A stretch of DNA of 60,204 nucleotides from Deinococcaceae bacterium (GTDB lineage: Bacteria > Deinococcota > Deinococci > Deinococcales > Trueperaceae). This document shows, in pieces, positions 28,713-60,204 of the stretch. The notes beneath the pieces were generated by a model. The model saw only the letters and a list, made by a program, of their open reading frames with translations. It did not search any database and was not told the DNA's origin. Both the position numbers and the translations under genes were made by a program. Every line of letters starts with the position of its first letter. The stretch's first letter is position 1. The stretch covers positions 1 to 60,204 of the forward strand of contig JBDZWC010000001.1 in assembly GCA_040256005.1 (NCBI GenBank). Reading direction: 5' to 3'.

Positions 28713-29786
28713 CTACCCGCCGGCCCCGAACTCGAGTCGGGGCTGTGCGGCAGCGGAGGCTGCTTCCGACAGCTCGGCCACCGCCACGCCCAACAACCGC
28801 ACCGGCGCCCTCGGCCCCTCGGTCTCGAACGCCAACCTGCGCGCCAGTACCAGCAGGTGGGCACGCTGCGAGAAAGGTACCGGTTCGGTGTGGCTGCGCG
28901 TCACCGTGCGGAAGTCGTCGAAGCGGATCTTGACAGTCACCCGTCTGGCCGCCAGGCCGCGCCGTTCCAGGCTGGTCATCACGTCCGCACACAGTTCCTG
29001 CAGTACCGCGTCGAGACCGGCGTCCTCCGTGATATCCACGTCGAACGTGGTCTCCGATCCGATCGACTTGCGGGGCTGGTTCGGTACGACGGGCCTGTCG
29101 TCGATGCCGTTGACGATGTCGTGCAGGAACGCGCCGAACTTGCCCAGGGCGGCCTCGAGTCGCTCGCGCCCTGCCGCCTTGAGGTCGGCTCCCGTCGTCA
29201 GGCCGAGGCCGCGCAGTTTCGCGGCCGTGCGAGGTCCCACGCCGTGGAACCGCTCGACAGGCAGCGGCATCAGGATCGCATCGGCCTCATCCGGGGTGAT
29301 CACGCTCAGGCCGTCCGGTTTCGAGAGGCCGCAGGCCAGCTTGGCCAGGAACTTCCCCGTCGACACGCCAGCCGATGCCGTGAGCCCGGTCGCCTGCTTC
29401 ACCTCGGCCTTTATCGCGCGCGCGATGAGCGTGGCCGAGGCCGGACCCTGCTTCGGCTGCGTGACGTCGAGGTATGCCTCGTCGAGGGCCAGGGGCTCGA
29501 CCAGGTCGGTGTAGCGGTGGAAGACCTCCCTCACCTGGGACGAGACCCCCCTGTAGACGTCGAACCGAGGTCTGACGACGAGCAGCTCCGGACACGCCCG
29601 CAAGGCGCGAGCCATCGGCATGGCGGAGCGCACGCCGAAGGCACGCGCCTCGTAGCTGGCGGCCGCCACGACGGCCCGCGGTCCGGTACCGCCGACCGCT
29701 ACGGGCTTGCCGCGCAGCTCCGGTCTGTCGCGCTGCTCGACCGAGGCGTAGAAGGCGTCCATGTCGACGTGGACGATCTTCCGCAC
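28713..29786 (-). CDS. dinB: DNA polymerase IV (Y-family)
   Basis: GTG start. MRKIVHVDMDAFYASVEQRD, SIDEAYLDV-type motif (ALDEAYLDV), and little-finger region. Confidence 0.9.
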   Translation of the reverse strand: MRKIVHVDMDAFYASVEQRDRPELRGKPVAVGGTGPRAVVAAASYEARAFGVRSAMPMARALRACPELLVVRPRFDVYRGVSSQVREVFHRYTDLVEPLALDEAYLDVTQPKQGPASATLIARAIKAEVKQATGLTASAGVSTGKFLAKLACGLSKPDGLSVITPDEADAILMPLPVERFHGVGPRTAAKLRGLGLTTGADLKAAGRERLEAALGKFGAFLHDIVNGIDDRPVVPNQPRKSIGSETTFDVDITEDAGLDAVLQELCADVMTSLERRGLAARRVTVKIRFDDFRTVTRSHTEPVPFSQRAHLLVLARRLAFETEGPRAPVRLLGVAVAELSEAASAAAQPRLEFGAGG

Positions 29787-34189: not shown

Positions 34190-34321
34190 GAAGCAGAGCC
34201 TAGCATGAAGTTGGCAATACCAAGCACTTGACAATACAAAGCGCTTTATATTACGGTGTGTCTATCGAGGCGGTGCGCCGAGCGTCCACCCGCCCGAAAA
34301 TCACGACAACTGGAGCGCTAG

Positions 34322-34911: not shown

Positions 34912-35484
34912 TCAGCTGGCCGCCCCCGCGATGAGCGAGGCCGCCGCGCTCTTCGCGAGCTCGGCGGCCTGCGCGTTCCCTTTGACGAGCACGACCACGC
35001 TGGCGCCCTCCAGCAGCATCAGCAGCTGCTGAGCCAAGCCCGCGGGGTCGTTCAGGCCGGCCTCGCGCGCCTGATCCTCGAAGTAGCGTTCGATCCTGTG
35101 ACCGTGCGCCTGAGCGAACGGTCGCGCCGCGTTGAGCTGTCCGCCGAGCTCGAACGTGGCGGATACGAGTGGGCTGCCCCTGAAGTCGGGGCTGGCCGCC
35201 CAGTCGATGAAGAGGTCGAACACGGCGAGCATGCGACCGAGTGGCTCGGTGGCCATGTCCTTCGCCTTGTCCAGCCACTCGTCTCGCTCGGCTGTCCGTC
35301 GCTCGAGCACCGCCTTGATCAGGGCGTCCTTCGAGGGGAAGTGGTGGTAGAGGGTCATGCGCGCCACGCCAGCGCGGGCGATGATCTCGTTGATGCCGAC
35401 GTTGGACACGCCGCGCGCGTAGAAGAGCCGCGCAGCCGTGTCCAAGAGTCGCTCCGCGGCTCCCGACCTACCCTGATCGCTCAT
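34912..35484 (-). CDS. TetR-family transcriptional regulator
   Basis: ATG 35484. The N-terminal HTH is FYARGVSNVGINEIIARAGVARMTLYHHFPSKDAL. Confidence 0.85.
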   Translation of the reverse strand: MSDQGRSGAAERLLDTAARLFYARGVSNVGINEIIARAGVARMTLYHHFPSKDALIKAVLERRTAERDEWLDKAKDMATEPLGRMLAVFDLFIDWAASPDFRGSPLVSATFELGGQLNAARPFAQAHGHRIERYFEDQAREAGLNDPAGLAQQLLMLLEGASVVVLVKGNAQAAELAKSAAASLIAGAAS

Positions 35485-35592
35485 GTGGACCGATGATACG
35501 TACCGGTCGGTCTGATGACAAGGGCCCGGTGGGCACGGCGCGTCCGACGGCACTGTTCGCCGCGCGCGGGCACGGCGTTGGCCGCCGCCGGC

Positions 35593-41078: not shown

Positions 41079-42038
41079 CTACACCTTCAGGTCTGGTCTC
41101 ACGGCGCTCAGGTACTCGAGCTGCTCATCTAGCTCTCGTGCCGTCTCGTCGTCGAGCTGCTGACCTGGCGCCCTGACGAAGGCGGTCGCGATCGCGCCGC
41201 GCCGTCGGTAGACCTCCTTACGGATCGCCAACCCGATGCCGGGCTGGAACTCGAACGCGAGGAACGCCGCCGCCGAGCGATAAACGGAGAACGCCGGCCT
41301 GCGTTCCGTAGGCGCGTCGCCGAGGACGGCTCTTACGGCTCCTATCAGGAGCTCCGGGTACGAGAGGCCGGTCATGACCCCGTCAGCCCCGCGCTGCAGC
41401 TCCTCGAGCAGGTACAAGCCGCCCAGGCCGCCCAGGACGCTGAGGCCCGGAGAGACCGCCTTGAGGGCTGACAGCTTCGGCGACGTCGGGGCATCCTCGA
41501 GCTTGATCGTGGTGACGCTGGGCACCTCGGCGTGCACGTGGGCCAGGGTGGCGGCGGAAAGCTTGATCCCGGTCGCTGCCGGGTAGTCGTGCACGATGAC
41601 GGGCACCCGGCCGCCACTGGCCACGAGCGCCTGGTCGAGCTCTCGGTACTGCGCCAACACGGCCTCCGGCTGCGCGGCCGCAGGCGCGACCATCAGTCCA
41701 TCGGCTCCCAGCTCGAGGAACCGCACGCCGCGCTTGACGGTGAGGTCCACGCCGCCGGCGCTGGCGCCCGCGTAGACGCGGATACGATCCCCGGCGGCCT
41801 GCCTCGCGACGGTGACGACGGTGTCCTGCTCGGCTTCGCTGAGTTTGTGTGCTTCACCGAGGAAGCCCAGCACCGTCACACCGTCTACGCCCGCCTCCAC
41901 CAGCATGCGCACGAGGCCGGCGAGGCTCTCGGCGTCGAGTTCCCCCGTGCGCGTGAACGGTGTGGGTGCGATCGTGTAGACGCCGCGTAGCGCCTGGGGC
42001 CGGCCCGACGGCCGCTGCTGTGTCTCGTTCAGTCCCAC
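41079..42038 (-). CDS. dihydrodipicolinate synthase/N-acetylneuraminate lyase-family (class I aldolase) protein
   Basis: TIM-barrel DapA-family pattern (PFTRTGELD, GVDGVTVLGFLGE, GADGLMV). GTG start. The stop lies 8 nt before the GH65 gene. Confidence 0.7.
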   Translation of the reverse strand: MGLNETQQRPSGRPQALRGVYTIAPTPFTRTGELDAESLAGLVRMLVEAGVDGVTVLGFLGEAHKLSEAEQDTVVTVARQAAGDRIRVYAGASAGGVDLTVKRGVRFLELGADGLMVAPAAAQPEAVLAQYRELDQALVASGGRVPVIVHDYPAATGIKLSAATLAHVHAEVPSVTTIKLEDAPTSPKLSALKAVSPGLSVLGGLGGLYLLEELQRGADGVMTGLSYPELLIGAVRAVLGDAPTERRPAFSVYRSAAAFLAFEFQPGIGLAIRKEVYRRRGAIATAFVRAPGQQLDDETARELDEQLEYLSAVRPDLKV

Positions 42039-43132
42039 TCGCTCAGGCTACCCCGCAACCTACGCCTGTCCGAACGGGCATAGCGGCGCGCCATGTCCAG
42101 GGTCGCGTGCCTGAGGTGATCCTGCACCAGGCCGAGGTCGCCGGACTGGCGGTAGAGCCGCGTTCCGGCTGCGTGCCTGAGGGCGTGGACGCCCTTGAAC
42201 GTGATACCGGCCCGCAGGCAGAGCCTGCGGAGCCGGTTGTAGACGCCGTACTGGGAGCGCAGCTCGAGCACCTCCTCACGGTGCCTCGTGGCCGGGTCGG
42301 CCTGCACCTGGCGGGCGTACCGGGCGAGCTCCGCAGCCAGACGCGGGCTCAGGACCACCTCGGCGGCCTTGCCGCCCTTGCCCTCCCGAACGAGCAGCGT
42401 GGCCGAGCGAAGGTCGATATCGTCCCAGCGCAGCCGCACCATCTCGCTGACGCGCAGCCCTCCATGCGCGCCGAGGAGGAGCATGACTCGCTCGTGGGCG
42501 TCCTTGGCGGCCGCCAGCAACTCGTTCATCTCGTACTCGGTGTAGACGCGGGCGGTGGCCGTGTCACCCAGGTCGGGTGCGGACCTGCCGAGCCGTACGT
42601 GCCGGAACGGGTCGGATTCGGTGGCGCCCGCCCAGGCCAGGGCGTCGTACAAGGCGCGAGCGGCAGCCACGCGCAGGCCCACGGTCGCCGGCGCGAGGGG
42701 GCCACGCTTGACGCGGCGGCCCCGCCGGGACGGGTCGTCGCCGGCCACCACCTCGTCGCGGTCTCCCGCGAGCAGCCGCTGGACGTAGAGCGGGCCGGCG
42801 TCGCGGCTGGGTCGCAGCAGGTTCTCACCCTGCCACAGGGCGAGCAGCTCCTTGAGCCCGCGTCGATAGGCCCTGAGCGTGTGCCGGCTCGTGGTGACGC
42901 CCCGGGCGCCTCTCAGCGTGAGGTGCGCCTCCATCAGTTCCCACAGCGCGTCCTCGTCCCGTTCGCCCGCTGCCTTGACCGCATGCCTCCGCAGCGCCTC
43001 CTCGGAGAGGCTCTGGAGGCGGGATACGCGCTGCAAGCGCGTCGCGGTCGAAAGCTCGAGTGAGGTGATCCCCACGCCAGCGAGGCTAGCCCGGGCGGCA
43101 GGGGAGACCAGTGACGTGTTTCGCATTATCAA
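42029..43132 (-). CDS. tyrosine recombinase / site-specific integrase (XerC/D-like)
   Basis: C-terminal catalytic motifs: GLRVSEMVRLRW (Arg I), HALRHAAGTRL (H-x-x-R), LRHATLDMARRYA (Tyr). N-terminal SAM-like core-binding domain. TTG start. The 3' end overlaps the next gene by 10 nt. Confidence 0.85.
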   Translation of the reverse strand: MIMRNTSLVSPAARASLAGVGITSLELSTATRLQRVSRLQSLSEEALRRHAVKAAGERDEDALWELMEAHLTLRGARGVTTSRHTLRAYRRGLKELLALWQGENLLRPSRDAGPLYVQRLLAGDRDEVVAGDDPSRRGRRVKRGPLAPATVGLRVAAARALYDALAWAGATESDPFRHVRLGRSAPDLGDTATARVYTEYEMNELLAAAKDAHERVMLLLGAHGGLRVSEMVRLRWDDIDLRSATLLVREGKGGKAAEVVLSPRLAAELARYARQVQADPATRHREEVLELRSQYGVYNRLRRLCLRAGITFKGVHALRHAAGTRLYRQSGDLGLVQDHLRHATLDMARRYARSDRRRLRGSLSEWD

Positions 43133-44271: not shown

Positions 44272-44664
44272 GTGATGACGACGGAACGATCCGAGACGTT
44301 GGGCACGCCGATGCTGGACCTTCTGCGGCCGCAGCCGGCCCCGAGCGAGCGCGAAGCAGAGACTCGCTGGCTGCCCGTGACGCGGCGCTACCTGGCTAGG
44401 GACGATTGGGACGACGAAGAAACCAGCTCGGAAGCTGACCCGCTCGCAGACGACGACTTCGCCGACGGTGACGACGACGACGAGGACGACTGGGAAGAGG
44501 CCGAGGACGAGTTCGACGACTGGGACGACGAGGACGACTGGGACGACGAGGACGACGACGAGGAAGAGGATGAGGACGACGGTCTAGACCCTTGGGATGA
44601 CGAGGTCGAGGACGACGACGAGGAAGAGATCGACTTCGGCGACGATCAAGACGACGAGCTCTGA
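44272..44664 (+). CDS. hypothetical, extremely acidic Asp/Glu/Trp-rich protein
   Basis: GGAGG (44264-44268) lies 6 nt before ATG 44275 (GTG 44272 also in frame). A 45-aa ordinary N-terminus is followed by ~85 aa that are almost entirely D/E, with five (D/P)W(D/E)(D/E) motifs. The codons are GAC/GAG, which fits the genome bias. Confidence 0.55.
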   Translation: MMTTERSETLGTPMLDLLRPQPAPSEREAETRWLPVTRRYLARDDWDDEETSSEADPLADDDFADGDDDDEDDWEEAEDEFDDWDDEDDWDDEDDDEEEDEDDGLDPWDDEVEDDDEEEIDFGDDQDDEL

Positions 44665-44843
44665 GCGGGCCCTGACCCTGAACGACGTGCTCTGAGCGTG
44701 GAGCTCTGTGCCACCCGTACCGTCGCGCCAAGGCGCCCCAGGCGCACTAGGCGCCCTCGGCGTCGACGTCGTGGTTCCAACGTGACAGCTAGCAGCCGCG
44801 ACGGCGAGGCGTCGACGAGGCCAGAGCGCTGTCCCGATTTAAT

Positions 44844-44863
44844 TTGATAATTTGACTTATCAA
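44844..44863. promoter_or_regulatory. palindrome TTGATAA-N6-TTATCAA in an AT-rich island, candidate operator
   Basis: Perfect 7-bp arms (44844-44850 and 44857-44863) lie inside the most AT-rich stretch of the 450-bp gap upstream of the GntR gene. Confidence 0.4.
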
Positions 44864-45113
44864 AACGCATAGTGACAAACAGCATATTCACTGCGTTCTC
44901 GACTTGCGCACCTACGCTCTCCTGACCGCCCGACAACGCATATACAGTCTGATCATCACGAAGCCGCCGCTCGCGGCCATGCAGACCCCCTGTGTCCAGG
45001 AGGTCGGCACGCCTCGAGCCATGGCGCTAGCGGCCGGCGATGTCAGCTCACCTGGCGCAGAACCTGGAGCCGCACGTTTGACCGTCCCGCAACCGAGCGC
45101 ATAAGCTTACACA

Positions 45114-48455: not shown

Positions 48456-49559
48456 TTGACCGAAGCCGGGACGATCGATCAGCCGGGTCTCTTCGACCTG
48501 CGGGAATACTCGTCGCCAGACCGTGTGGACGGAAGCGTCGTACTCACTGAACCAACCCGCGGCGACCCGCTGCCTCGCGAAGGCGACTCCGGTGCGGTGC
48601 CGCCCACCTCGGGCGCAGACGCCCCGTCCTCCGCGGCCACCCCGGAAGACAACGAGCGCTGGGAGGCGCTCGTCGCCGACCTGGAAGCGACCGGGCGTTA
48701 CCGCGTCCTACGCCGCTTCGACGAACGGCTCGACGATCCGCCGGCGCCGGTCGTTGGCTCGGGGGTCCGCAAGGGCGTCTACCTCGACGTCGAGACGACC
48801 GGGCTCATGGCCCATGACCGCATCATCGAGCTGGCGATGCTCGTCTTCCATTACGACGAGACTGGCAGGGTCGTACACGTGACCGAGGCGTTCGATCGCC
48901 TGGAGGACCCGGGACGCACGATCCCGGCCGACGTCGTCTCCCTCACAGGCATCACGAACGACATGGTGAGGGGTCAACGTATCCTCGACGAGGAGGTAGC
49001 GCGGCTACTGGATGGGGTCGACCTGGTCGTGGCGCACAACGCCGGGTTCGACCGCCAGTTCGCTGAGGCACGCTTCCCGTTCTTCAGCGAGGTCGACTGG
49101 GCCTGCTCGATGGCCGACGTCGACTGGTCGGCCGGGGGTCTCAGGAGCCGCCGGCTGGAGAACCTGGCGCTGGCGAAGGGGTACTTCTACCAGGCTCACC
49201 GCGCGATCTACGACTGTCACGTCGCGCTGGGCCTGCTACGGATGCCCATCCGCGAGTCCGGACCACCGGCCTTCGCCGACCTGCTGCAGCGCTCGGCGGC
49301 CGTGTGGGTGAGGCTCTGGGCCGAAGGCAGTCCGTTCGAGAAGAAGGACGACCTCAAGGCTCGCGGGTACCGCTGGAGCGGGCAGGCCAAGGCCTGGTGG
49401 AAGGACCTGCCCGCCTCGCAACACGAGGCCGAGGTCGAGTGGTTGGCGGACAACGTCTACCCCAGACGGCGCGCTCTCCCCTTCCTGACCATCACCCCTA
49501 GGAACCGCTACTCCCGCCGCCTGCCGGAGGCTCCGCCGGCGAGCGCCGAGAGGCTCTGA
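48456..49559 (+). CDS. DEDDh 3'-5' exonuclease (DnaQ/epsilon-like) with disordered N-terminus and Trp-rich C-terminal domain
   Basis: ExoI is YLDVETTGL, ExoII is VAHNAGFDRQF, ExoIII is HRAIYDCHV. The C-terminal domain contains KARGYRWSGQAKAWWKDL. TTG start. Confidence 0.8.
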   Translation: MTEAGTIDQPGLFDLREYSSPDRVDGSVVLTEPTRGDPLPREGDSGAVPPTSGADAPSSAATPEDNERWEALVADLEATGRYRVLRRFDERLDDPPAPVVGSGVRKGVYLDVETTGLMAHDRIIELAMLVFHYDETGRVVHVTEAFDRLEDPGRTIPADVVSLTGITNDMVRGQRILDEEVARLLDGVDLVVAHNAGFDRQFAEARFPFFSEVDWACSMADVDWSAGGLRSRRLENLALAKGYFYQAHRAIYDCHVALGLLRMPIRESGPPAFADLLQRSAAVWVRLWAEGSPFEKKDDLKARGYRWSGQAKAWWKDLPASQHEAEVEWLADNVYPRRRALPFLTITPRNRYSRRLPEAPPASAERL

Positions 49560-49572
49560 GCGCGCCATTGCG

Positions 49573-50133
49573 TTATTGCGCGAGCGCTTGAGCGAGTTGC
49601 TCGCGCGCGGAGCTAAGTTGGGACTGGTCGACCGGGCCGCCCCTGGCGAGGGCGACCTCCAACGCCGTGAACTCCCGTTCACCGACGGGCAGCAGCTCCC
49701 GGTTGCCCCAGGCGGTGGCAACGTGGTTGAGGACCAGCGCCAGTTCCTGGTCGCCAAGGTGACCGAACGACGGCATGAGCCCGTCGTAGCTCCGGCCCGC
49801 CACGTTCACGTCGCCGGAGAGGCCGTGCAGTAACACCCTGACCAGGTACCACCGCCCACCGTCAACGCCCAGAAGCTCCGGGACCACTGCCGCCAAGGGA
49901 GGGTACGCCCCCACCAGACCGTCTCCCGTGTAGCCGTGGCAAGCGGCGCAGTCGGCCTCGTAACGGGCCCGGCCCGCCGTCGTGTCCAACGTGGCTAGGT
50001 CCCTGCCCACGGGCACCGGTGACGAAGCGTCGCCGATCGACGTGAACGACGCTGCCGCGGCGCACACCGCCACAGCGCATAGACCGAGCGCCATCCACCG
50101 CAGGCCCGCTGGACGTCCGGCCGTACGCCTCAC
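49573..50133 (-). CDS. class I c-type cytochrome (secreted)
   Basis: Heme motif CAACHG. Signal-like MALGLCAVAVCAAAA. GTG 50133 overlaps the polX TGA (GTGA). ATG 50094 is an alternative start. Confidence 0.7.
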   Translation of the reverse strand: MRRTAGRPAGLRWMALGLCAVAVCAAAASFTSIGDASSPVPVGRDLATLDTTAGRARYEADCAACHGYTGDGLVGAYPPLAAVVPELLGVDGGRWYLVRVLLHGLSGDVNVAGRSYDGLMPSFGHLGDQELALVLNHVATAWGNRELLPVGEREFTALEVALARGGPVDQSQLSSAREQLAQALAQ

Positions 50134-51872
50134 GCCTTGGCGAGGAACGCCAGTACCTCGGGCAGGGGCCGCGTGTTGACGACGTCTTCCGCCGTGAGCC
50201 AGGCCCGCCTGGCCTGATCGACGCCCAGGCGCATCACGCCGAGGCCACGCACCGAGTGGGCGTCGGAGCCGATGAAGACCTTGAGCCCCGCAGCGACGGC
50301 CGAGCGCAGGTGGACGTCGGGGAGGTCCAGTCGACGTGCCGACGAGTTGTGTTCGACCGCCACGTGGTTGGCCGCACAAGCGGCGAACACCTCGGTCAGG
50401 TCGATCGCTATGGGGTCCCGTTGACCGATCTGACGGCCCAACGGGTGCGCGTAGACGTTGACGCGCGGGTGCGACAGCGCCTTGACGACGCGCTCGGTCT
50501 GTACCGACTCGGGTAGCTCGAAGAAGCTGTGTACGCTCACGATGACGACGTCGAGGTTCGCCAACTGCTCGTCGGTCACGTCGAGGCTGCCGTCCTTAAG
50601 TATGTCGACCTCCATACCGCGCAGTACGCGGATGTCTTCCCGGCCGGCTATCAACCCTGCGAGCTCGGCGTGCTGGCGCCTCAGCTTGTCGTCGTCCAGT
50701 CCCCCTTGCAACGCGAGCGACCCGCTGTGGTCGGTGATCGCCATGTACTCGTAGCCCAGTGCGGCGCACCCTTCGATCATCGCTGCCAAGCTGTCGCGTC
50801 CGTCGGACCAGGTCGAGTGCATGTGGAGATCGCCACGCAGGTCCGTCAGCTCGATCAGGTCGGGTAGGGCGCCCGCCGCGGCCCCGGCGACCTCTCCCCT
50901 GCCTTCTCGCAGCTCCGGCGGCACGAACGCCAGACCGAGTCCGGCGTAGATCTCCTCCTCCGTGGCGCCAGCGAGCCGCTTGCCGCCGGGTCGGTCCTTG
51001 CCTGCCGAGCCGCCCGCGAACAACCCGTACTCGTTGAGGTGCCAGCCCTTGTCCAGGGCCAGCTGCCTCAGCTCGACGTTGTGCTCCTTGGAGCCCGTGA
51101 AGTACAGGACCGCCGCACCATAGCTCGCCTCCTCGACCGTCCTCAGGTCGACCTGGAGGCCGCTCCGCAGGTCCACGCTGGTCTTGGTCTCACCCGTGCC
51201 CAACACCGCAGCGACCTCGTCGTACGTGGCCAGCGCAGCGTGCAAGGCGGCCGGCTCAGTGGCGACGGCCACCAGGTCGACGTCACCGACGCTCTCCTTG
51301 CGACGCCGGTAGGACCCTGCGACCTCGAGGCGCCGGACGCCGGGCACCGCCAACAACCGCTCGAGCAGCGGGACGAGAACGGCGTCCACGTGGCCGAGAG
51401 GAAGGCGCCCGACGTTCCGCCTGTAGCTGTCTATGCCGCGGAGGATCCGCTCGGCGGACTTGGCACCGAAGCCCTTCAGCTCGGTCAGGCGGCCCGCCCG
51501 CGCAGCGGCCTCGAGGTCGTCGACCGACTGCACGCCCAACGCCCTCCAGAGCGTCGCTGCCTGCTTGGGTCCGACCCCCTTCACGCGCGTGAGGTCGAGC
51601 AGACCCACCGGCACCCGCTCCTCGAGCTCGATCAGCTGCGGCATGACGCCCGTTTCGACCAGGGTACGTACCTTGGCCGCTATCTCTCTCCCTACTCCCT
51701 TGATCGCGGTGAGATCCGCCCCGCCCGCCAACAGCTCCTCGACCGGGGTCTCTATGTCCCTGATCGTCGCCGCCGCGTTCCGATACGCGCGCACCTTGAA
51801 CGGGTTGTCGCCATCGAGCTCCGAGAGGTCGGCCAACCGGTCGAGCTGCCTGGCTATCTCGGCGTTGCTCAT
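50130..51872 (-). CDS. polX: family X DNA polymerase with C-terminal PHP domain
   Basis: N-terminus MSNAEIARQLDRLADLSELDGDNPFKVRAYRNAA (HhH, 8-kDa-like). Pol-beta-like core with GSYRRRKESVGDVDL. PHP motifs DLHMHSTWSDG and ITDH. Confidence 0.9.
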   Translation of the reverse strand: MSNAEIARQLDRLADLSELDGDNPFKVRAYRNAAATIRDIETPVEELLAGGADLTAIKGVGREIAAKVRTLVETGVMPQLIELEERVPVGLLDLTRVKGVGPKQAATLWRALGVQSVDDLEAAARAGRLTELKGFGAKSAERILRGIDSYRRNVGRLPLGHVDAVLVPLLERLLAVPGVRRLEVAGSYRRRKESVGDVDLVAVATEPAALHAALATYDEVAAVLGTGETKTSVDLRSGLQVDLRTVEEASYGAAVLYFTGSKEHNVELRQLALDKGWHLNEYGLFAGGSAGKDRPGGKRLAGATEEEIYAGLGLAFVPPELREGRGEVAGAAAGALPDLIELTDLRGDLHMHSTWSDGRDSLAAMIEGCAALGYEYMAITDHSGSLALQGGLDDDKLRRQHAELAGLIAGREDIRVLRGMEVDILKDGSLDVTDEQLANLDVVIVSVHSFFELPESVQTERVVKALSHPRVNVYAHPLGRQIGQRDPIAIDLTEVFAACAANHVAVEHNSSARRLDLPDVHLRSAVAAGLKVFIGSDAHSVRGLGVMRLGVDQARRAWLTAEDVVNTRPLPEVLAFLAKA

Positions 51873-51897: not shown

Positions 51898-54223
<2,326 letters not shown>

Positions 54224-54266: not shown

Positions 54267-54932
54267 TCAGGCCAGGCGCTGCACGCAGGCGGGGCTGTCG
54301 AACCTCGGACTGCCCACGGACCTGTCAACGGGATGCATGGTAAGGACGCCGGCGTCGGCCGGATCGAGCAGGTCCTCGAGTCTTGTCGGGTCCTTCTCCT
54401 CGACGTCGAGCCAACGGCCCCACTCCCCCTTCTCGAGGACCACGGGCATCCTGTCGTGCAGCTCTCGCATCTCGACGTTGGCGTCCGTGGTCAGGATGGT
54501 GCACGACGCGATTGGCGCCTCACCGTTGCGGTTGACCGCCCAGAGGCCGGCGAAGGCCAGCGGCTGCCCATCCGTCCGGTACACGTAGTAGGGCTGCTTA
54601 GCCCCGCCTTCGGTACGCCACTCGTAGAAGCCAGAGGCCGGCACCAGGCAGCGTTGCGACCTCATGGGGTCACGGAACGACGGCTTGTCCGCCGCGCTCT
54701 CCGCGCGCGCGTTGAACAGGTTCGACCTGAAGTCCTTGGGGTCCTTCACCCAGTGCGGCAGCAGACCCCAGCGCATCTCCTCCATGACCCTGCTCCCGTC
54801 GGAACGCTGTCTGATCACGGGCACGGTGCTCGTCGGGGCGATGTTGTAGCGCGGCGTGAGCGGGTAGGTCTCGACCTCGAAGAGCGTTGCCAGGTCGTCC
54901 TCGTGGCTGTACAGCGTGTAGCGCCCGCACAT
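54267..54932 (-). CDS. SOS response-associated peptidase (SRAP/YedK family, abasic-site DNA-protein crosslink sensor)
   Basis: N-terminal MCGRY with catalytic Cys2. YNIAPT and WGLLPHW motifs. 221 aa. The ATG directly abuts the rep stop codon. Confidence 0.9.
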   Translation of the reverse strand: MCGRYTLYSHEDDLATLFEVETYPLTPRYNIAPTSTVPVIRQRSDGSRVMEEMRWGLLPHWVKDPKDFRSNLFNARAESAADKPSFRDPMRSQRCLVPASGFYEWRTEGGAKQPYYVYRTDGQPLAFAGLWAVNRNGEAPIASCTILTTDANVEMRELHDRMPVVLEKGEWGRWLDVEEKDPTRLEDLLDPADAGVLTMHPVDRSVGSPRFDSPACVQRLA

Positions 54933-56438
54933 CTAAGCCGCCTCCTCCAGCGCGACCAGGATCGACTCCCGCGCCTGGGCAGAGTACTCCGACAGCACGT
55001 TCTCGGTGCCGACGTAGGCCTTCACGTCACGGAGGTGGGAGGGGAAGGTCACGAAGCCGTGGCTCGCCATCACGTCCGTGCGCTTGGATTCGTACAGCGT
55101 GCCGCGCCAGTCGTCCGCGCCGATTCGCTCCAGGGTGAAGCGGTGCAGGGTGGCCTGCATGATCGTATGCACCAGCTCCCGGTTGTCTGGCGTCATCGCC
55201 TGCCAAGCGGCGCTGGCCAGGCGCTTGCGTGCTTGGTGGAACGCCTCGAGGATGCTGGCGGCGATGCTGCGCGCCTCGTCGGCCGTCATCGCCGCGTCCG
55301 CAGCTTCGTCGGCGATCTGCTCGGCGGGCGGTTCGACGCCCTGCGTCAGCAGGCTGTTGACGAAGCCGGCCAGGTTGTAGATCGGCCGTCCTGCCCCCTC
55401 CGCCTTCGCCTGCAGCTGGCGTGCGTAGGCGACTATGCGCAGCACGCGGTCGGCGCCGTGATGCCCGACGGTACGGTCGGCATCCTGAGCCCAGCCGATC
55501 TCCCTGAGCGCGTCCGTGGCTTGCAGCTCTCGCAGCAGTCGCTGCTTGTCCGCGGGGCGCGGCACCCGCTTCGCGAGGCTGGCCGGTAGCCGGATACGTG
55601 GCTTGAAGACGTCGTTCTTCTCGATACGGAAGGTTACGCGCTGGTACTTGCGTCCGACCTTGGCCGCTTCGTAGTCGAAGACGAGGCATGTGTACTTGGC
55701 GAACTCCTGCTGCGCCCTGTCGAGCACGTACTTGAAGTCCTTGAAGCGCTCGTACTTGCCGTCGAGCCCGAGTCGCAGCTTGAGGTCGTCGACGTCGAAG
55801 GTCAAGCGTCGCCTCTCGCCGGCGTAGCTCGCGGTGTACAGCACCTCGAAGAGCCTCATGCTGTTGAAGCTCTCGAAGCTCAGGAGCTGGTCCGTAGGGA
55901 TGATGCTGAAGTCACGACGCAACTGCAAGAGGTACGGCTTGAGCTTCTCGTGGATCTTCAGCTCTATGCAGGCCATCTGATCCTTGCTGTCGCGGCCGTT
56001 CTCGTAGCGCGCCTCGGAGACCCACTGGAACATCACCCAGTCCCCGTTGGGCTCCTTGACTTGGACCGTCTGCTCGAGCAGCTCCCGTGCCGACTCCTCG
56101 ATCCGCGAGTAGATGCTCTTCCCCTTGATGTTGAACAGCTGAGCGAACTCCCAAGCCGTGATGCGGATGGGCTGGAGGTCCTCGTCGTTCCGGGTCACGT
56201 CCGACAGCGCCAGTACCAGCAGGCGCTTGCTGAGGATCCCCATCTCCTGCCGGCTGAGCGCCAGCGGGTTCGCTTGAGTCACCGACAACTTCGAGCCGCC
56301 GCGGTCTAGGGCTCGCGTCTCCCCTCTCCGGCCCCTCCCGGGACCCGCCGTGCCCCGCCTGCCCTTCACAGCGAGCGGCTCTACCTCCACCGCGGTAACC
56401 TCATCCACGGGCGTCGTACCTCTGTTCGAAGCGTCCAT
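54933..56438 (-). CDS. plasmid-type replication initiator (Rep_3/RepB-like winged-helix initiator) with a long C-terminal extension
   Basis: The core (aa ~50-300) reads like Rep_3 initiators: VTQANPLALSRQEMGILSKRLLVLALS, ITAWEFAQLFNIKGKSIYSRIEESARELL, FESFNSMRLFEVL. Iterons lie immediately upstream. A ~45-aa disordered N-terminus and a ~200-aa helical C-terminus are unassigned. Confidence 0.85.
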   Translation of the reverse strand: MDASNRGTTPVDEVTAVEVEPLAVKGRRGTAGPGRGRRGETRALDRGGSKLSVTQANPLALSRQEMGILSKRLLVLALSDVTRNDEDLQPIRITAWEFAQLFNIKGKSIYSRIEESARELLEQTVQVKEPNGDWVMFQWVSEARYENGRDSKDQMACIELKIHEKLKPYLLQLRRDFSIIPTDQLLSFESFNSMRLFEVLYTASYAGERRRLTFDVDDLKLRLGLDGKYERFKDFKYVLDRAQQEFAKYTCLVFDYEAAKVGRKYQRVTFRIEKNDVFKPRIRLPASLAKRVPRPADKQRLLRELQATDALREIGWAQDADRTVGHHGADRVLRIVAYARQLQAKAEGAGRPIYNLAGFVNSLLTQGVEPPAEQIADEAADAAMTADEARSIAASILEAFHQARKRLASAAWQAMTPDNRELVHTIMQATLHRFTLERIGADDWRGTLYESKRTDVMASHGFVTFPSHLRDVKAYVGTENVLSEYSAQARESILVALEEAA

Positions 56439-56471
56439 CCCGCCCTTCCAAGCCCGGAGACCTTCCTGCGC

Positions 56472-56501
56472 ATCCTACGTCCGGTGGGAATGAACCGTCA
56501 A
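56472..56501 (-). promoter_or_regulatory. candidate rep promoter
   Basis: On the minus strand, TTGACG (56501-56496), 18 nt, TAGGAT (56477-56472). The -10 lies ~34 nt upstream of the rep ATG. The -35 is flanked by degenerate iteron copies, consistent with autoregulation. Confidence 0.4.
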
Positions 56502-56726
56502 CGCTTTCCCGCTAGTTCCCCCTTTCCCGGGGAGAGCGCATCCAGGTTCCCCATTTTCCCCGGTTCGGTCCCCCGTCTTCCCCGGTTGGTACCGCCGCTT
56601 CCCCGCCGAGGTCCCGCCGCTTCCCCGCTCCGGTACCCGAACCTTCCCGCCAGGGTACCCCCGCTGTCCCGCTCAACGTCGAACAGCCCCGTCCTGAACG
56701 CACTTCCCGGCGTTCCCTAATGGGAA
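56497..56726. repeat. iteron array (six 22-bp-phased units plus degenerate copies) ending in an inverted half-iteron palindrome
   Basis: Units start at 56545, 56567, 56588, 56610, 56632 and 56654, each GGT(A/C)CC..(C)TTCCCG. Degenerate CTTTCCCG copies sit at 56504-56511 and 56522-56529, and CTTCCCG at 56703-56709. The palindrome TTCCCTAATGGGAA is at 56713-56726. Confidence 0.85.
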
Positions 56727-56812
56727 TCTGAAATGGAGCTGAAGAACCTCAACAACCCAAAGCTTGCTGTTGCTCTCTTCCAGAAGTCAGCCAGATCTCG
56801 AGATCGAGACGC
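56713..56812. other. AT-richer stretch, candidate DNA-unwinding element
   Basis: My hand count over these ~100 nt gives about half G+C, against clearly higher G+C on both sides. It is adjacent to the iteron array and has no convincing ORF. Confidence 0.4.
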
Positions 56813-56910
56813 CCTCGGTTCCGCAAGTACCGGCCGTTTCCCACTTCGGAAGGCGCGGGCTGCAGCCCGAAACCTCGCTGGCTCGGGCCGATGAACGCAC
56901 CCAGACCGGC

Positions 56911-57018
56911 GGTACCCCCTCTCCCCTACCGGGCATAGGCGCCGGCTACAGGTCCGCATGGCGGCCCGGACATGGCGCTCGCGCAGCACCAGGCACAAAC
57001 GGGAAAGCGACGGTACTC
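56911..57018. repeat. two isolated iteron copies in opposite orientations
   Basis: GGTACCCCCTCTCCCC (56911-56926) has the same orientation as the left array. GGGAAAGCGACGGTACTC (57001-57018) has the same orientation as the right cluster. Confidence 0.6.
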
Positions 57019-57511
57019 GCGGACCGGCTGCGGCCTGCGCATGGTGTCGATGCCGCCATAACGATATGGCGTTTCACCGGGACGCTCCGACTCCGGTGGC
57101 CGAGGCGGACCTGTGATGTAGAGATCGGACCCGCTGTGGAGTCCCGGAGCTGCGGGAGAGCCGACTACTCACCGCCAAGCCTCCTCATTGGCCCTGCGCG
57201 GGAGGTTCGCGGGCCAGCGAAGGCGACGAGGGAGGTCGGCTGCGGGCGCTGCCGCGCCGACGTGCTGACGTTGGCCCTTCCCCACCGGAGCCGGTCCCGA
57301 GGTACACGCTCGTTCGCGGCCTACCGGATGTAGCGCCGACACAGAGCGTCCGATCCTGCGACGCAATAGCGTTATGGCGCTCACCAGCGCCCCGGTCCTC
57401 GGGAACGCGGAGCCGCGGCCGGGCGTCGCGTACGGCTCCGGAGGGCGCGGGTAGAATCACGAGCGTGACACCTCCAGCCGAGACCACACCACTTGTCGAT
57501 GGCGGGTGTGG

Positions 57512-58300
57512 ATGCGGGTCCTGACGTTCTTCAACCATGCCGGTGGCGTGGCGAAGACGAGCACGGTAAGGGACGTCGGCTACGTCCTCGGCGAGCGCGG
57601 CTATCGCGTCCTGTTGATCGACGTAGACCCTCAAGCGAACCTGACGCGGTGGTTGGGCGTGGAGGACGTCGACCTCGCCGATACGATCTATCCCGGCGTC
57701 ATGAGCGCGGCTGAGGACGAGGACGTGGACGATCAGGAACTGGTACTGCCCAGGCCGCGCACCGTTCACGGCATGGACTTGATACCCAGTCAACTGAACG
57801 TGGCGATCCTGGAGCGGGAGATCCTGAGCGTGTTCATGGGCGTCGTGCGGCTACGGGAAGCCGTCAGGAAGCTCGAGGGCTACGACTTCGTCCTGATAGA
57901 TCCGCCGCCGAGCCTGGGTCAGTTGTCGGCGTTGGCGGTCGTGGCGGCTGATGGAGTGGTAGTGCCGCTACCGACGAACAGGAAGGGCCTCGACGGGCTC
58001 GCGACCGTGATCAAGATGGTGCGGGAGTACCGGAAGGCGGCGCCCAGACTCGACCTAGAGTTCTTCGTGCTCACGCAACACGACCGGCGGACCCGCCACG
58101 ACCGGGAGAGCCTCGACGCGATCGGGCGGCAACTCGTCAGCATCGCGCCGGTCTCCACGCCGCTGGGTAGCCGGCCGGCGTACTACTCGGACGCGCAAGT
58201 AGCGGGGGTGCCCGTACCGGTGTACGCTCCCGGGAGCGATGCGGACATGGAGATCAGGACCGTCACGGACGAGCTTCTCGAGGCGCTGGGGAACGGCTGA
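57512..58300 (+). CDS. parA: ParA-family partition ATPase with an atypical deviant Walker A
   Basis: MRVLTFFNHAGGVAKTSTV...LLIDVDPQANLT...VLIDPPPSL. ATG 57512 (GTG 57506 also in frame). The TGA shares one base with the parB ATG. Confidence 0.85.
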   Translation: MRVLTFFNHAGGVAKTSTVRDVGYVLGERGYRVLLIDVDPQANLTRWLGVEDVDLADTIYPGVMSAAEDEDVDDQELVLPRPRTVHGMDLIPSQLNVAILEREILSVFMGVVRLREAVRKLEGYDFVLIDPPPSLGQLSALAVVAADGVVVPLPTNRKGLDGLATVIKMVREYRKAAPRLDLEFFVLTQHDRRTRHDRESLDAIGRQLVSIAPVSTPLGSRPAYYSDAQVAGVPVPVYAPGSDADMEIRTVTDELLEALGNG

Positions 58301-59247
58301 TGGCTAAGAAGCGGGGATCCGTCGACAGGTCCGCGGTGTTCGAGGCCATCCTCGGCGGGTTGACCGAAGAGGAGGCCGTCGAGAGCGGGACGACCTTGCC
58401 GCTGCGCGCCATCAGGTTCAACGACCGCCAGCCGCGCAAGCACATCAGCGAGGATGGCTTGGAGGAGCTGGCCGCGAGCATCAAGGACAGAGGCGTGCTG
58501 GAGCCCGTGATCGTGAGGCGCGTCGGGGGCGGGTTCGAGTTGGTTGCGGGCGAGAGGCGCACGCGGGCGGCTGCGCTGGCGGGGCTGGAGGAGATCCCCG
58601 CGATCATCGTCGACATAGATGACCGCGAGGCGCTCGAGATCGCGATCATCGAGAACCTGCAACGGGAGGACCTGAACGCGGTAGAGGAGACAGAGGCCGT
58701 GTTGGGGCTGCTCGAGATGGAGCTCGATGCGGGTCGGCGCGAGGTCACCCAGGTCCTCCAGGCGCTGTACAACGAGGAGCGCGGACGTATCACGGGCCGG
58801 AAGGTGAGCGACGGTGAGCGCAAGAGCGTGCAGGCGCTGTTCAAGCGGTTGGGCCGCTTCAGTATCAGTTCCTTCGTGAGCAACAGGCTGCCTATCCTCG
58901 AGTTCCCCGAGAGCTTGCTGGCAGCCGTTCGCGAGGGGAGACTGGCGTTCACGAAGGCACAGGCGATCGCCCGGGTGGCCGATGCGGACGACAGGGAGCG
59001 CCTGCTCAGTGTGGCGGTGAGCGAGGATCTGTCCCTTAGTCAGATACGCCGCCGGATCACCGAGCTGAGGGCCGGGCGTGCGGCGCTGGCGCAGCGGGGA
59101 GCGGCGAGCCACCTGGATGCTACGCACCGATTGGTGTCCAACACGAAGCGGCTTTTGAACAGGCGACGCTTGGTCGCGCTCGCGCCCGAGAAGCTAACGC
59201 GGGTGAACGAGCTGCTCGAAGCGTTGCGGGCTGAGCTGGAAGAGTGA
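58300..59247 (+). CDS. parB: ParB/Spo0J-family partition protein
   Basis: ParB N-terminal box I/II with an arginine patch (PVIVRRVGGGFELVAGERRTRAA), HTH region, and C-terminal dimerisation helix. Confidence 0.9.
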   Translation: MAKKRGSVDRSAVFEAILGGLTEEEAVESGTTLPLRAIRFNDRQPRKHISEDGLEELAASIKDRGVLEPVIVRRVGGGFELVAGERRTRAAALAGLEEIPAIIVDIDDREALEIAIIENLQREDLNAVEETEAVLGLLEMELDAGRREVTQVLQALYNEERGRITGRKVSDGERKSVQALFKRLGRFSISSFVSNRLPILEFPESLLAAVREGRLAFTKAQAIARVADADDRERLLSVAVSEDLSLSQIRRRITELRAGRAALAQRGAASHLDATHRLVSNTKRLLNRRRLVALAPEKLTRVNELLEALRAELEE

Positions 59248-59325: not shown

Positions 59326-59805
59326 ATGCTGGACGTCGGAACCGCGGCACCTGATTTCGACCTCGAAGACCAGGCAGGGCGGGTACATAAGCTCAGCGAG
59401 CAGCGGGGGAGATGGGTCGTGCTGTACTTCTACCCGAAGGACGATACGGCCGGCTGCACCAAGGAAGCGTGCTCGTTCCGGGACGGTCTACCGGCGTTCG
59501 CCGGCTTGGACGCGGTCGTACTGGGGGTCTCCGCGGACGACGTCGGAAGCCACAACGCGTTCGCTGGAAAGTACGGTCTCAACTTCCCCCTGCTAGCCGA
59601 CGTCGACAGACGGGTCATCGACGCGTACCAAGCCTGGGGAGAGAAGGAGCGGGACGGCGAGCGCTACGAGGGCATCTTGCGGATCACCTACCTGATCGAT
59701 CCCAGTGGCCGGATCGCCCAGACGTGGACCGTAGTGGATCCCGAGTCGCATGCAGCAGAGGTACGAGAAGCGTTGGAGCTCCACGTGGGCAGGGTGTCGG
59801 CCTGA
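59326..59805 (+). CDS. bcp: thiol peroxidase / peroxiredoxin Bcp
   Basis: APDFDLEDQAGRVHKLSEQRGRWVVLYFYPKDDTAGCTKEACSFRD contains the peroxidatic and resolving Cys in CTKEAC. Confidence 0.9.
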   Translation: MLDVGTAAPDFDLEDQAGRVHKLSEQRGRWVVLYFYPKDDTAGCTKEACSFRDGLPAFAGLDAVVLGVSADDVGSHNAFAGKYGLNFPLLADVDRRVIDAYQAWGEKERDGERYEGILRITYLIDPSGRIAQTWTVVDPESHAAEVREALELHVGRVSA

Positions 59806-59816
59806 GAGCACGCTAG

Positions 59817-60204
59817 CGGGAGACCGAGGGTACTCGGGCCCGGCGAGCGTTCGCGAGCCCAGGCGCGCGTCCAGGTAGGGTCATCGCGCGGCGCTTGCGG
59901 TGCGCGACCGGGCGCAAGTGGGGAAGATGGGGAACCGAACGTCAACGGGGCACGAGGGGGAAGGCTGCGGTACTCGTGGAGCGGTTCTAGCGAGACCGCC
60001 GCCGGGGAACCCGGGGTACCGACAGCGAAGGGGGAACGCAGCGGTACTCACGTGAGCGGTGTGCCAGCCGGCGCGGTCGTGAAAGGGGAGACCGGCGGTA
60101 CTCGCGCCGAGGCCATCTTGGGCCTAGTGGGGAACTAAGGGTACCGGGCGGGTACCGGGCGCCGCGCCGGGGTACGCCGGGCGGTGAGGTTCGAGTGTTC
60201 CCGG
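59817..60204. repeat. second, dispersed cluster of the same iteron family in inverted orientation (truncated by the window end)
   Basis: Copies at 59817-59835, 59920-59936, 59956-59975, 60003-60020, 60030-60049, 60084-60103 and 60129-60145 read GGGGA(A/G)-N4-6-GGTAC(T/C)C on the plus strand. Extra GGTAC(C) half-sites sit at 60151-60156 and 60171-60175. Confidence 0.8.

Follow-up and report, generated by a model that had tools for sequence, protein, structure and literature searches.

We analyzed a 60,204-nt stretch of DNA (hereinafter, the window) from a Deinococcaceae bacterium of the family Trueperaceae (assembly GCA_040256005.1, contig JBDZWC010000001.1, positions 1-60,204, forward strand) and found that the 1.07-kb gap between the rep and parA genes in all likelihood (with a probability of about 85%, judging from sequence comparison) controls the replication and partition of a large, low-copy, theta-type plasmid-like replicon. 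That this region includes an iteron-controlled theta origin served by the adjacent Rep_3 initiator appears to be well supported. The elements described below, their statistical specificity, their conservation, and the predicted fold of Rep are established in this analysis, and the components of the origin keep their order and spacing in approximately 48 to 50 Trueperaceae species. The comparison set consists of 50 loci, one genome per species, in which Rep is 64-90% identical to the Rep of the window; nearly all of these come from metagenome-assembled genomes of Trueperaceae or unclassified Deinococcota. The counts of iteron copies and of their phasing refer to these 50 sequences, the window included, and the A+T profile as well as the operator, palindrome, and MAFFT consensus counts refer to 39 loci that could be anchored on the array start.

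The central feature of the gap is an array of six head-to-tail 22-bp iterons (56545..56675, plus strand; 17.4-21.9 bits each). The units start at 56545, 56567, 56588, 56610, 56632, and 56654, with a spacing of 22/21/22/22/22 bp, exactly as given in a preliminary description of the window that was made from its sequence alone. The scores come from a 22-column matrix built from the rep-parA gaps of the 50 loci, with matches of at least 14 bits considered strong; the family consensus, RGTMCC-N5-TTYCCC-RC-TT, consists of two invariant blocks located approximately one helical turn apart. The phasing is conserved along with the motif: in 49 of the 50 loci, at least four copies fall on the lattice of 0/22/43/65/87/109 bp, and in 21, all six do. 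A phased array of direct repeats of the 17-22-bp class that adjoins rep is one of the features by which Rep_3 replicons are recognized, and such an array is observed here.

The repeats appear to be confined to the origin and control regions, as expected of such replicons. A loose regular expression for the iteron matches 20 sites in the window, compared to about three expected from Markov simulations, and 16 of the 20 lie inside two non-coding stretches. With the matrix, 16 strong copies are detected in the window, all within 56505-57017 or 59813-60145: nine in the rep-parA gap and seven, all inverted, beyond the bcp gene. The remaining 58.7 kb of the window contain no strong copy. In the related loci, 618 matches to the matrix are in place (505 in the rep-parA gaps and 113 beyond bcp) vs 14 in 413 kb elsewhere. 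The preliminary description had raised the prospect that the motif is a generic element scattered over the genome; the motif is not dispersed, so this test, now run, leaves the origin interpretation standing.

The promoter of rep and its putative operator occupy 56472..56510 on the minus strand. A consensus scan places the -10 hexamer, TAGGAT, at 56472-56477 and the -35 hexamer, TTGACG, at 56496-56501, so that the promoter-like element TTGACG-N18-TAGGAT reported previously runs along the minus strand (56501..56472). The -35 box is flanked by inverted half-iterons, TTCCC at 56486-56490 and GGGAA at 56506-56510, both in the rep sense. The composite motif GGGAA-N2-6-TTGACN-N2-6-TTCCC-N-TAnnnT occurs in 38 of the 39 anchored loci but never in the shuffled sets, with a -35/-10 spacer of 18 bp in 30 loci and of 17 bp in 8; a conserved GGAAGG precedes the ATG of rep (56438). 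The GGGAA/TTCCC pair bracketing the -35 box (56486-56510) is, then, the putative operator. An inverted partial-iteron repeat overlapping the rep promoter is a further feature typical of Rep_3 replicons, and this locus apparently contains one. In mini-F and pPS10, Rep dimers repress rep via an inverted repeat that shares one iteron half. By analogy, TTYCCC would be the half-site of the second winged-helix domain of Rep (WH2) and GTMCC the half-site of the first one (WH1).

The preliminary description sought the operator elsewhere, in the palindrome TTCCC-TAAT-GGGAA, with which the array was said to end. The palindrome is indeed present at 56713-56726 and starts 38 bp past the end of the array rather than at it. 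As an operator, it is ruled out: it occurs in just 2 of the 39 loci, compared to 38 for the -35 composite, and forms part of a conserved A-rich block, CCnTAAnGGGAATGnAA. The degenerate iteron copies that had been placed next to the -35 box, at 56504-56529, were recovered: the sequence just upstream of the -35 box (56505..56529, plus strand) includes a matrix match at 56505-56526 (15.3 bits) and extra TTCCC half-sites. A promoter-proximal copy of this kind is located 39-41 bp ahead of the array in 25 of the 50 loci.

On the side of the array that faces away from rep, there is an A+T-rich block with an A-strand bias (56712..56796, plus strand), a candidate DNA unwinding element that includes the conserved CCnTAAnGGGAATGnAA (56715-56735). 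The G+C content is 0.46-0.51 in the block and 0.51 in 56700-56799, vs approximately 0.67 in the surroundings, in line with the earlier hand count of about half G+C over some 100 nt. The duplex at 56712-56796 ranks third to sixth among the least stable stretches of the window (z = 3.7-4.0). Across the 39 anchored loci, the block keeps a fixed offset from the array, with the A+T fraction climbing from a baseline of about 0.31 to 0.65 and 0.57 in the interval +170 to +210, counted from the start of the array. The block thus lies next to the iterons, where an unwinding element would be expected, and this role is plausible. Single-strand folding of the block yields no surplus structure (z = +0.76).

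The interval between the array and the A+T-rich block contains a conserved box, CGTCCTGAACG (56690..56700, plus strand), with the family consensus CGTCCnGnACG derived from the 39 loci; according to the anchored and MAFFT consensus, the box is kept in most of these loci, with no obvious candidate among the known binding proteins. Toward its distal margin, the A+T-rich block contains a short inverted repeat, CAACAAC ... GCTGTTG (56750..56772, plus strand; CAGCAAC ... GTTGCTG in the family), in which four of the five pairs are invariant and no double compensatory changes are observed, with a loop that ranges from about 4 to 30 nt between species. Because the arms are nearly invariant, covariation cannot separate a hairpin from a protein-binding site, and a hairpin is unsupported as a structured element. 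In agreement with the earlier statement that no convincing open reading frame (ORF) fills the gap, the codon-position G+C signal is absent over most of it (approximately 56440-57160), and there is no Rfam match in the gap. ORFs of 189 and 202 aa in the gap were considered as genes and rejected, with no sustained third-position G+C signal.

Farther toward parA, the gap contains two isolated strong iterons, one direct (56826..56847, plus strand; 25.0 bits) and one inverted (56996..57017, minus strand; 24.3 bits), that together form a 23-nt inverted repeat with 83% complementarity. The direct copy was overlooked in the preliminary description, which listed two others: its site at 57001-57018 corresponds to the inverted iteron, and the one at 56911 (56911..56926, plus strand) turned out to be a weak iteron-like copy that matches the loose regular expression, has a spacer one base short, and scores below 10 bits with the family matrix. 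In the related loci, two to five further plus-strand copies follow the A+T-rich block, often paired 29-33 or 40 bp apart, and one to three inverted copies are present at the parA-side end of the gap in 46 of the 50 loci. The order of the elements is near-constant across the loci: proximal copy, array, A+T-rich block, direct copies, inverted copies.

DnaA boxes are missing from this arrangement. With up to one mismatch allowed, no match to TTATCCACA was found in the gap of the window, and 74 kb of gaps from the 50 loci contain one such site vs 3.4 expected, with no enrichment. A DnaA box in the origin is not universal among iteron-controlled Rep_3 replicons. The layout of an iteron-controlled theta replicon that was originally proposed therefore holds with respect to the phased sites, the inverted half-iteron operator, and the A+T-rich element, but not with respect to the DnaA box and the placement of the operator.

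The rep gene (54933..56438, minus strand) encodes a 501-aa initiator that we assign to the Rep_3 family because it matches the Pfam domains Rep3_N (1.9e-24) and Rep3_C (4.4e-10), both above the curated cut-offs, and because its AlphaFold model superposes on RepE54; the database gene call starts at codon 11 and yields 491 aa. The protein starts with some 45 variable, mostly basic-region residues, followed by WH1 (53-200), WH2 (216-272), and a conserved helical C-terminal part (285-501). Sequence matches in the PDB are RepA, RepE, and pi, the best being WH1 of pPS10 RepA (1hkq, E = 4.9e-5). The AlphaFold model, with a predicted local distance difference test score (pLDDT) of 79.9, reaches target-normalised template modeling (TM) scores of 0.6-0.66 over approximately 232 residues to 1rep/7soz and 8aan, the targets being RepE54 on its iteron, the RepE dimer on its operator, and Rep in complex with unwound origin DNA (Rep-DUE). 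An initiator with two winged-helix domains, as is typical of Rep_3 replicons, is thus predicted.

WH1 and WH2 are almost invariant across the family of this Rep, and residues 285-501 are conserved within the family only. The family comprises approximately 100 protein clusters at 57-100% identity, after which the next matches fall to 33%; among the plasmids in PLSDB, there is no Rep closer than 28% identity. The C-terminal part (217 aa; 54936-55586 of the window, minus strand), when modeled alone, is all-helical (pLDDT 89) and has no match in PDB, BFVD, Pfam, or PHROGs. The BFVD rows for DUF6291 and DUF1376 have E values of at least 0.7 and were not taken as evidence. This part is a candidate helicase-recruitment or oligomerisation module that would operate at an origin without DnaA boxes.

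The second set of iterons lies beyond the gene for a bcp-like peroxiredoxin (59326..59805, plus strand; Pfam AhpC-TSA, 2e-38), which in 29 loci is syntenic as the third gene after parAB. In the stretch of 59.8-60.2 kb, which the preliminary description had flagged, there are seven iterons (59813..60145, minus strand; 15.8-24.8 bits each), all oriented opposite to the array and set at irregular intervals (102, 38, 46, 28, 54, and 43 bp); this cluster contains no A+T-rich block. We judge the cluster to be complete within the window because it was compared with a contig from another assembly (GCA_040255665.1; L053) that carries an identical Rep. Of the 29 loci that include bcp, about 20 have a cluster of four to nine copies, mostly in one orientation, on the far side of this gene. 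By analogy with known replicons, the second cluster is most likely a copy-control locus that would act by titration or handcuffing. A perfect 11-bp tandem duplication of GGGTACCGGGC (60139-60161) abuts the last iteron of this cluster and is absent from L053; it is a recent slippage event that copied the GGTACC half-site.

The partition operon starts on the other side of the gap. The parA gene (57512..58300, plus strand) encodes a Walker-type partition ATPase (Pfam AAA_31, 3.1e-34, and CbiA; NCBIfam ParA_partition); its likely start is the ATG at 57512, from which relatives align from residue 1, with a GTG at 57506 also in frame, and the gene call in L053 is 262 aa. It is followed by parB (58300..59247, plus strand), with the ParB_N and HTH_ParB domains. 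A ParA with a deviant Walker A motif and a ParB with ParB_N and a helix-turn-helix (HTH) domain are thus encoded in one operon, as is characteristic of ParABS systems. The nearest plasmid homologs of this ParB, 43-47% identical, are encoded on cyanobacterial, Thermus, Meiothermus, and Deinococcus megaplasmids.

The stretch that separates the last inverted iteron from parA contains a perfect 16-bp palindrome shared by the family, GCCATAACGTTATGGC. Wherever a locus includes parA, one to three copies of this palindrome precede the gene, and the gap accounts for 71 of the 92 matches in the 549 kb scanned. In the window, where 0.06 such matches would be expected by chance, there are two: GCCATAACGATATGGC at 57055..57070, one mismatch away from GCCATAACGTTATGGC, and GCAATAGCGTTATGGC at 57363..57378, with two mismatches, approximately 75 bp upstream of a TAGAAT -10-like hexamer (57453-57458); neither palindrome is assigned to a strand. 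Extra GCCATAACGTTATGGC palindromes flank bcp in the clades that lack the second iteron cluster. Canonical parS, TGTTTCACGTGAAACA, is absent. Sequence comparison makes the GCCATAACGTTATGGC palindrome a candidate ParB site, that is, parS. A weak third parS-like site, GCCATTGCGTTATTGC, with three mismatches, occurs at 49564-49579, in the spacer after an exonuclease gene, approximately 7 kb from the origin.

Taken as a scheme, in which the steps of binding, melting, repression, and handcuffing are inferred from F, pPS10, P1, and R6K, initiation would begin with the binding of Rep_3 monomers to the six iterons (56545-56675). The 21-22-bp phasing places all these sites on one face of the helix, and the separation of the GTMCC and TTYCCC blocks by one helical turn fits one winged-helix domain per block. 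The Rep-DNA complex would then melt 56712-56796 and recruit the host helicase; as the gap contains no DnaA box, both strand opening and the loading of the helicase may rest on Rep alone, perhaps by way of its family-specific helical C-terminal part. Rep dimers on the inverted TTCCC half-sites (56486-56510) would repress rep, and the iterons at 56826 and 56996, together with the 59813-60145 cluster, would titrate Rep and/or handcuff the origin. Finally, ParB bound to the palindromes at 57055 and 57363 would, with ParA, segregate the replicon.

Several points weigh against this interpretation of the gap. The arguments for Rep binding and origin firing come from comparison of sequences only. GC skew provides no usable origin signal: window-wide, it is near zero, its third-codon-position component follows the coding strand, the replication-linked component is approximately -0.01, and the local minimum at about 56.9 kb is caused by the divergent genes only. 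The A+T-rich block is only moderately A+T-rich (46-51% G+C) and is not the least stable stretch of the window. The DnaA box that belongs to the classic enterobacterial and Pseudomonas models is not found, and both parS-like sites in the window are imperfect, with one and two mismatches.

An alternative is that the 22-bp repeats serve mainly as a centromere to which ParB binds rather than as iterons for Rep. The repeats sit between rep and parAB, the second cluster lies on the other flank of the par operon, and the 18-bp direct repeats that precede parAB in Deinococcus radiodurans are bound in vitro by ParB2 and ParB3 (PMC7671480). However, the array adjoins rep, not parA, its half-site also builds the operator of the rep promoter, and bipartite units of 22 bp that are also phased at 22 bp follow the Rep_3 pattern. 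Furthermore, the separate conserved 16-bp palindrome beside parA is the kind of site expected for a ParB with ParB_N and HTH domains, so that its candidacy as the ParB site counts against the repeats in this role, and the clades without the second cluster carry palindromes, not iterons, around bcp. We consider the centromere function of the repeats improbable. Slightly less probable still is an inactive remnant of an integrated plasmid with non-functional repeats, which could be suggested by the location of the locus among housekeeping genes and by the tyrosine integrase encoded 13 kb away. Yet rep is intact, with DNA-binding domains that are nearly invariant over about 100 protein clusters, and approximately 48 species have retained the lattice and the operator as well as the A+T-rich block and the parS-like sites; at such divergence, neutral decay would have wiped out the 22-bp phasing. 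The chance clustering of a generic, dispersed repeat of the repetitive extragenic palindromic (REP) type is hardly credible: the only point in its favor is the G+C-rich, simple-looking motif, against which stand the lack of strong copies elsewhere in the window (58.7 kb) and the 14 copies in 413 kb of related flanks compared to 618 in place.

The replicon that would be served by this Rep_3 origin is most likely a chromid or a megaplasmid. It carries a plasmid-type replication and partition system (Rep_3, iterons, ParAB), as chromids do. The gene order bcp-parB-parA<gap>rep-SRAP-ligA-polX is maintained at protein identities of 55-93%, with ligA and polX syntenic with rep in 24 loci, and the identity of Rep to the window homolog tracks that of LigA (rho 0.85), PolX (0.88), and ParB (0.72), a sign of long vertical co-inheritance. 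Further genes in the window are polA, dinB, mgsA, ftsH, lepB, and surE, among sugar transporters and regulators, and the sequence to the left of the window contains sugar-transport and similar genes only, with no chromosomal marker. The size of the replicon is at least 285 kb: the largest contig is of this length, with rep in the middle, and all carriers of this type of Rep are metagenome-assembled contigs of up to 285 kb, with no closed genome found among them. At about even odds, we go one step further and propose that this is an ancient, vertically inherited, essential chromid of much of the Trueperaceae, driven by Rep_3 without DnaA boxes and carrying the ligA, polA, and polX genes of the cell amid other repair genes (SRAP, dinB, imuB-dnaE2, and mgsA).

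The same origin might instead be located on the main chromosome, either as a domesticated second origin or as the only origin of a chromosome independent of DnaA and oriC. This possibility is brought up by the presence of ligA, polA, polX, ftsH, and lepB, normally chromosomal single-copy genes, on the window and related contigs, by the conserved rep-SRAP-ligA-polX synteny that co-diverges with Rep, by contigs of up to 285 kb with rep centrally placed, and by the absence of DnaA boxes from the gaps; in addition, the only closed genome of the family, that of Truepera radiovictrix, consists of a single replicon (PMC3072082). However, none of the Rep matches is on a contig longer than 285 kb, and the 120 matches listed in the LigA search are all on metagenome contigs of up to 215 kb, so that the closed T. 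radiovictrix chromosome apparently lacks a Rep of the window type. The parS-like site is non-canonical and canonical parS was not found, which is typical of secondary replicons; ParB is nearest to the megaplasmid ParBs of Thermus, Meiothermus, and Deinococcus; a Deinococcus aetherius megaplasmid shares the rep<gap>parAB layout; and in one locus (L051), accessory genes and transposases, not ligA, are found beside rep. On balance, a chromosomal location seems unlikely, albeit considerably less so than the alternatives weighed above for the repeats, and its strongest form, in which this locus is the sole origin of the main chromosome, is very doubtful.

Two individual loci bear on the nature of this replicon. 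L051, on the 285-kb contig (GCA_044464065.1; 7748-10001 and 11500-14555), has a rep-parA gap of 2.25 kb, and IS3-type transposase genes and accessory genes, not SRAP-ligA, come after rep; these flanks indicate that the bcp-parBA-rep core is more constant than its linkage to ligA. L056, on the 716-kb megaplasmid pDAETH-1 of D. aetherius (274517-285212), shares the divergent layout, with an initiator gene, a 730-bp gap, and parA-parB; the initiator is annotated as 'replication initiator protein A' and, by annotation, is not a Rep_3 protein.

The surroundings of the origin are crowded with genes for DNA replication and repair, namely, mgsA/rarA (14030-16237), polA (21883-24657), dinB (28713-29786), an RNase_T-type exonuclease gene (48456-49559), polX (50130-51872), ligA (51898-53946), and SRAP (54267-54932); beyond the end of the window, an imuB-like/AAA_14/dnaE2-like cassette follows in L053 (1-5492). 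This crowding may reflect a link through dosage or co-regulation. Among other features of the window, the gene for a tyrosine (phage-type) integrase (42029-43132) lies between a DHDPS-family gene and znuA, approximately 13 kb from the origin. Within 44449-44915, a coding repeat of GACGACGAC (14.8 copies; an Asp-rich protein) precedes the stretch where the duplex is least stable in the entire window (44836-44915, z = 5.1-5.6) and where TAATTTGA occurs twice. An A+T-rich intergenic stretch between divergent small genes contains 2.1 copies of a 17-bp tandem repeat, TTGACAATACAAAGCAC (34211-34246); it lies beside a TetR-family gene (34912-35553) and resembles a promoter or operator region.

Among the characterized replicons, pPS10 is similar in having 22-bp head-to-tail iterons immediately ahead of rep, an A+T-rich region beyond the array as seen from rep, and a rep promoter with an inverted repeat made of part of the iteron; WH1 of its RepA is the best match to the window Rep among solved structures. 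The differences are that pPS10 contains four iterons and a DnaA box, whereas the window contains six iterons plus one and no DnaA box, that the window Rep is about twice as long owing to the extra helical C-terminal region of some 217 aa, that the window has additional iterons, both dispersed and inverted, along with a second cluster at a distance of 3 kb, and that pPS10 is a small plasmid, in contrast to a replicon of at least 285 kb. Mini-F (RepE, ori2, incB/incC) and P1 (RepA, incC/incA) resemble the window in having two iteron sets, one at the origin and one in a control locus, a neighboring partition operon of the ParA/ParB type in a low-copy replicon, and autorepression by dimers at an inverted half-iteron operator, which for the window is suggested by the sequence; the predicted fold of Rep matches the RepE54-iteron and RepE dimer-operator complexes of mini-F. 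The proposed role of the second cluster can be likened to that of incA of P1 and incC of F. Unlike in these replicons, however, the second cluster in the window is inverted and lies beyond parAB-bcp rather than directly after rep, DnaA boxes are lacking, and the centromere candidate is a simple 16-bp palindrome, dissimilar to sopC or P1 parS. Altogether, F, P1, RK2, pSC101, R6K, and pPS10 have a DnaA box, and the window gap has none.

Within the same phylum, the cisII and cisMP regions of D. radiodurans chromosome II and megaplasmid contain 18-bp direct repeats that overlap putative DnaA boxes and bind DnaA and ParB; no replicon-specific initiator has been identified for the secondary replicons of this bacterium, and DnaA binding to the direct repeats has been proposed (PMC7671480). 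The likeness consists in direct-repeat arrays upstream of parAB with proposed origin and centromere functions, whereas the window has an adjacent Rep_3 initiator, no DnaA boxes, and a separate palindrome as the likely ParB site, and the motifs share no sequence similarity. Chromosome 2 of Vibrio (RctB, ori2) and other chromids resemble the window replicon in their plasmid-derived iteron origin, their own ParAB-parS, vertical inheritance across a family, and large size with core genes. The Vibrio initiator is RctB, whereas that of the window belongs to the plain Rep_3 type, and the window shows no evident control through 39-mers or of the crtS type; the window replicon is only probably separate from the chromosome, and its ligA and polA are candidate sole copies. 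Rep_3 plasmids with sole rRNA operons carry essential genes and have been retained over very long evolutionary times, and some have acquired parAB, although Rep_3 genes co-occur with universal single-copy genes less often than other rep families do (PMC10645730). These plasmids are small and mostly high-copy, in contrast to the window replicon, which is large and has a partition system.

Thus, the element is of a well-known kind, to which the comparison adds what appears to be a complete replication and partition module conserved family-wide. Among large secondary replicons in Deinococcota, this is probably the first case in which an initiator and its origin can be identified as a pair. How initiation occurs at the secondary replicons of Deinococcota is unsettled, and the Trueperaceae locus supplies a parts list from a sister lineage: an initiator of the Rep_3 family, six iterons arrayed on a fixed lattice, an operator together with an unwinding element, a cluster for copy control, and a separate parS candidate. 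If the replicon is indeed a chromid with ligA, polA, and polX among its genes, it would be unusual among Rep_3 replicons in holding universal single-copy genes, would suggest a dosage benefit for repair genes located close to the origin, and would provide a replication module for vectors in Trueperaceae and related extremophiles.

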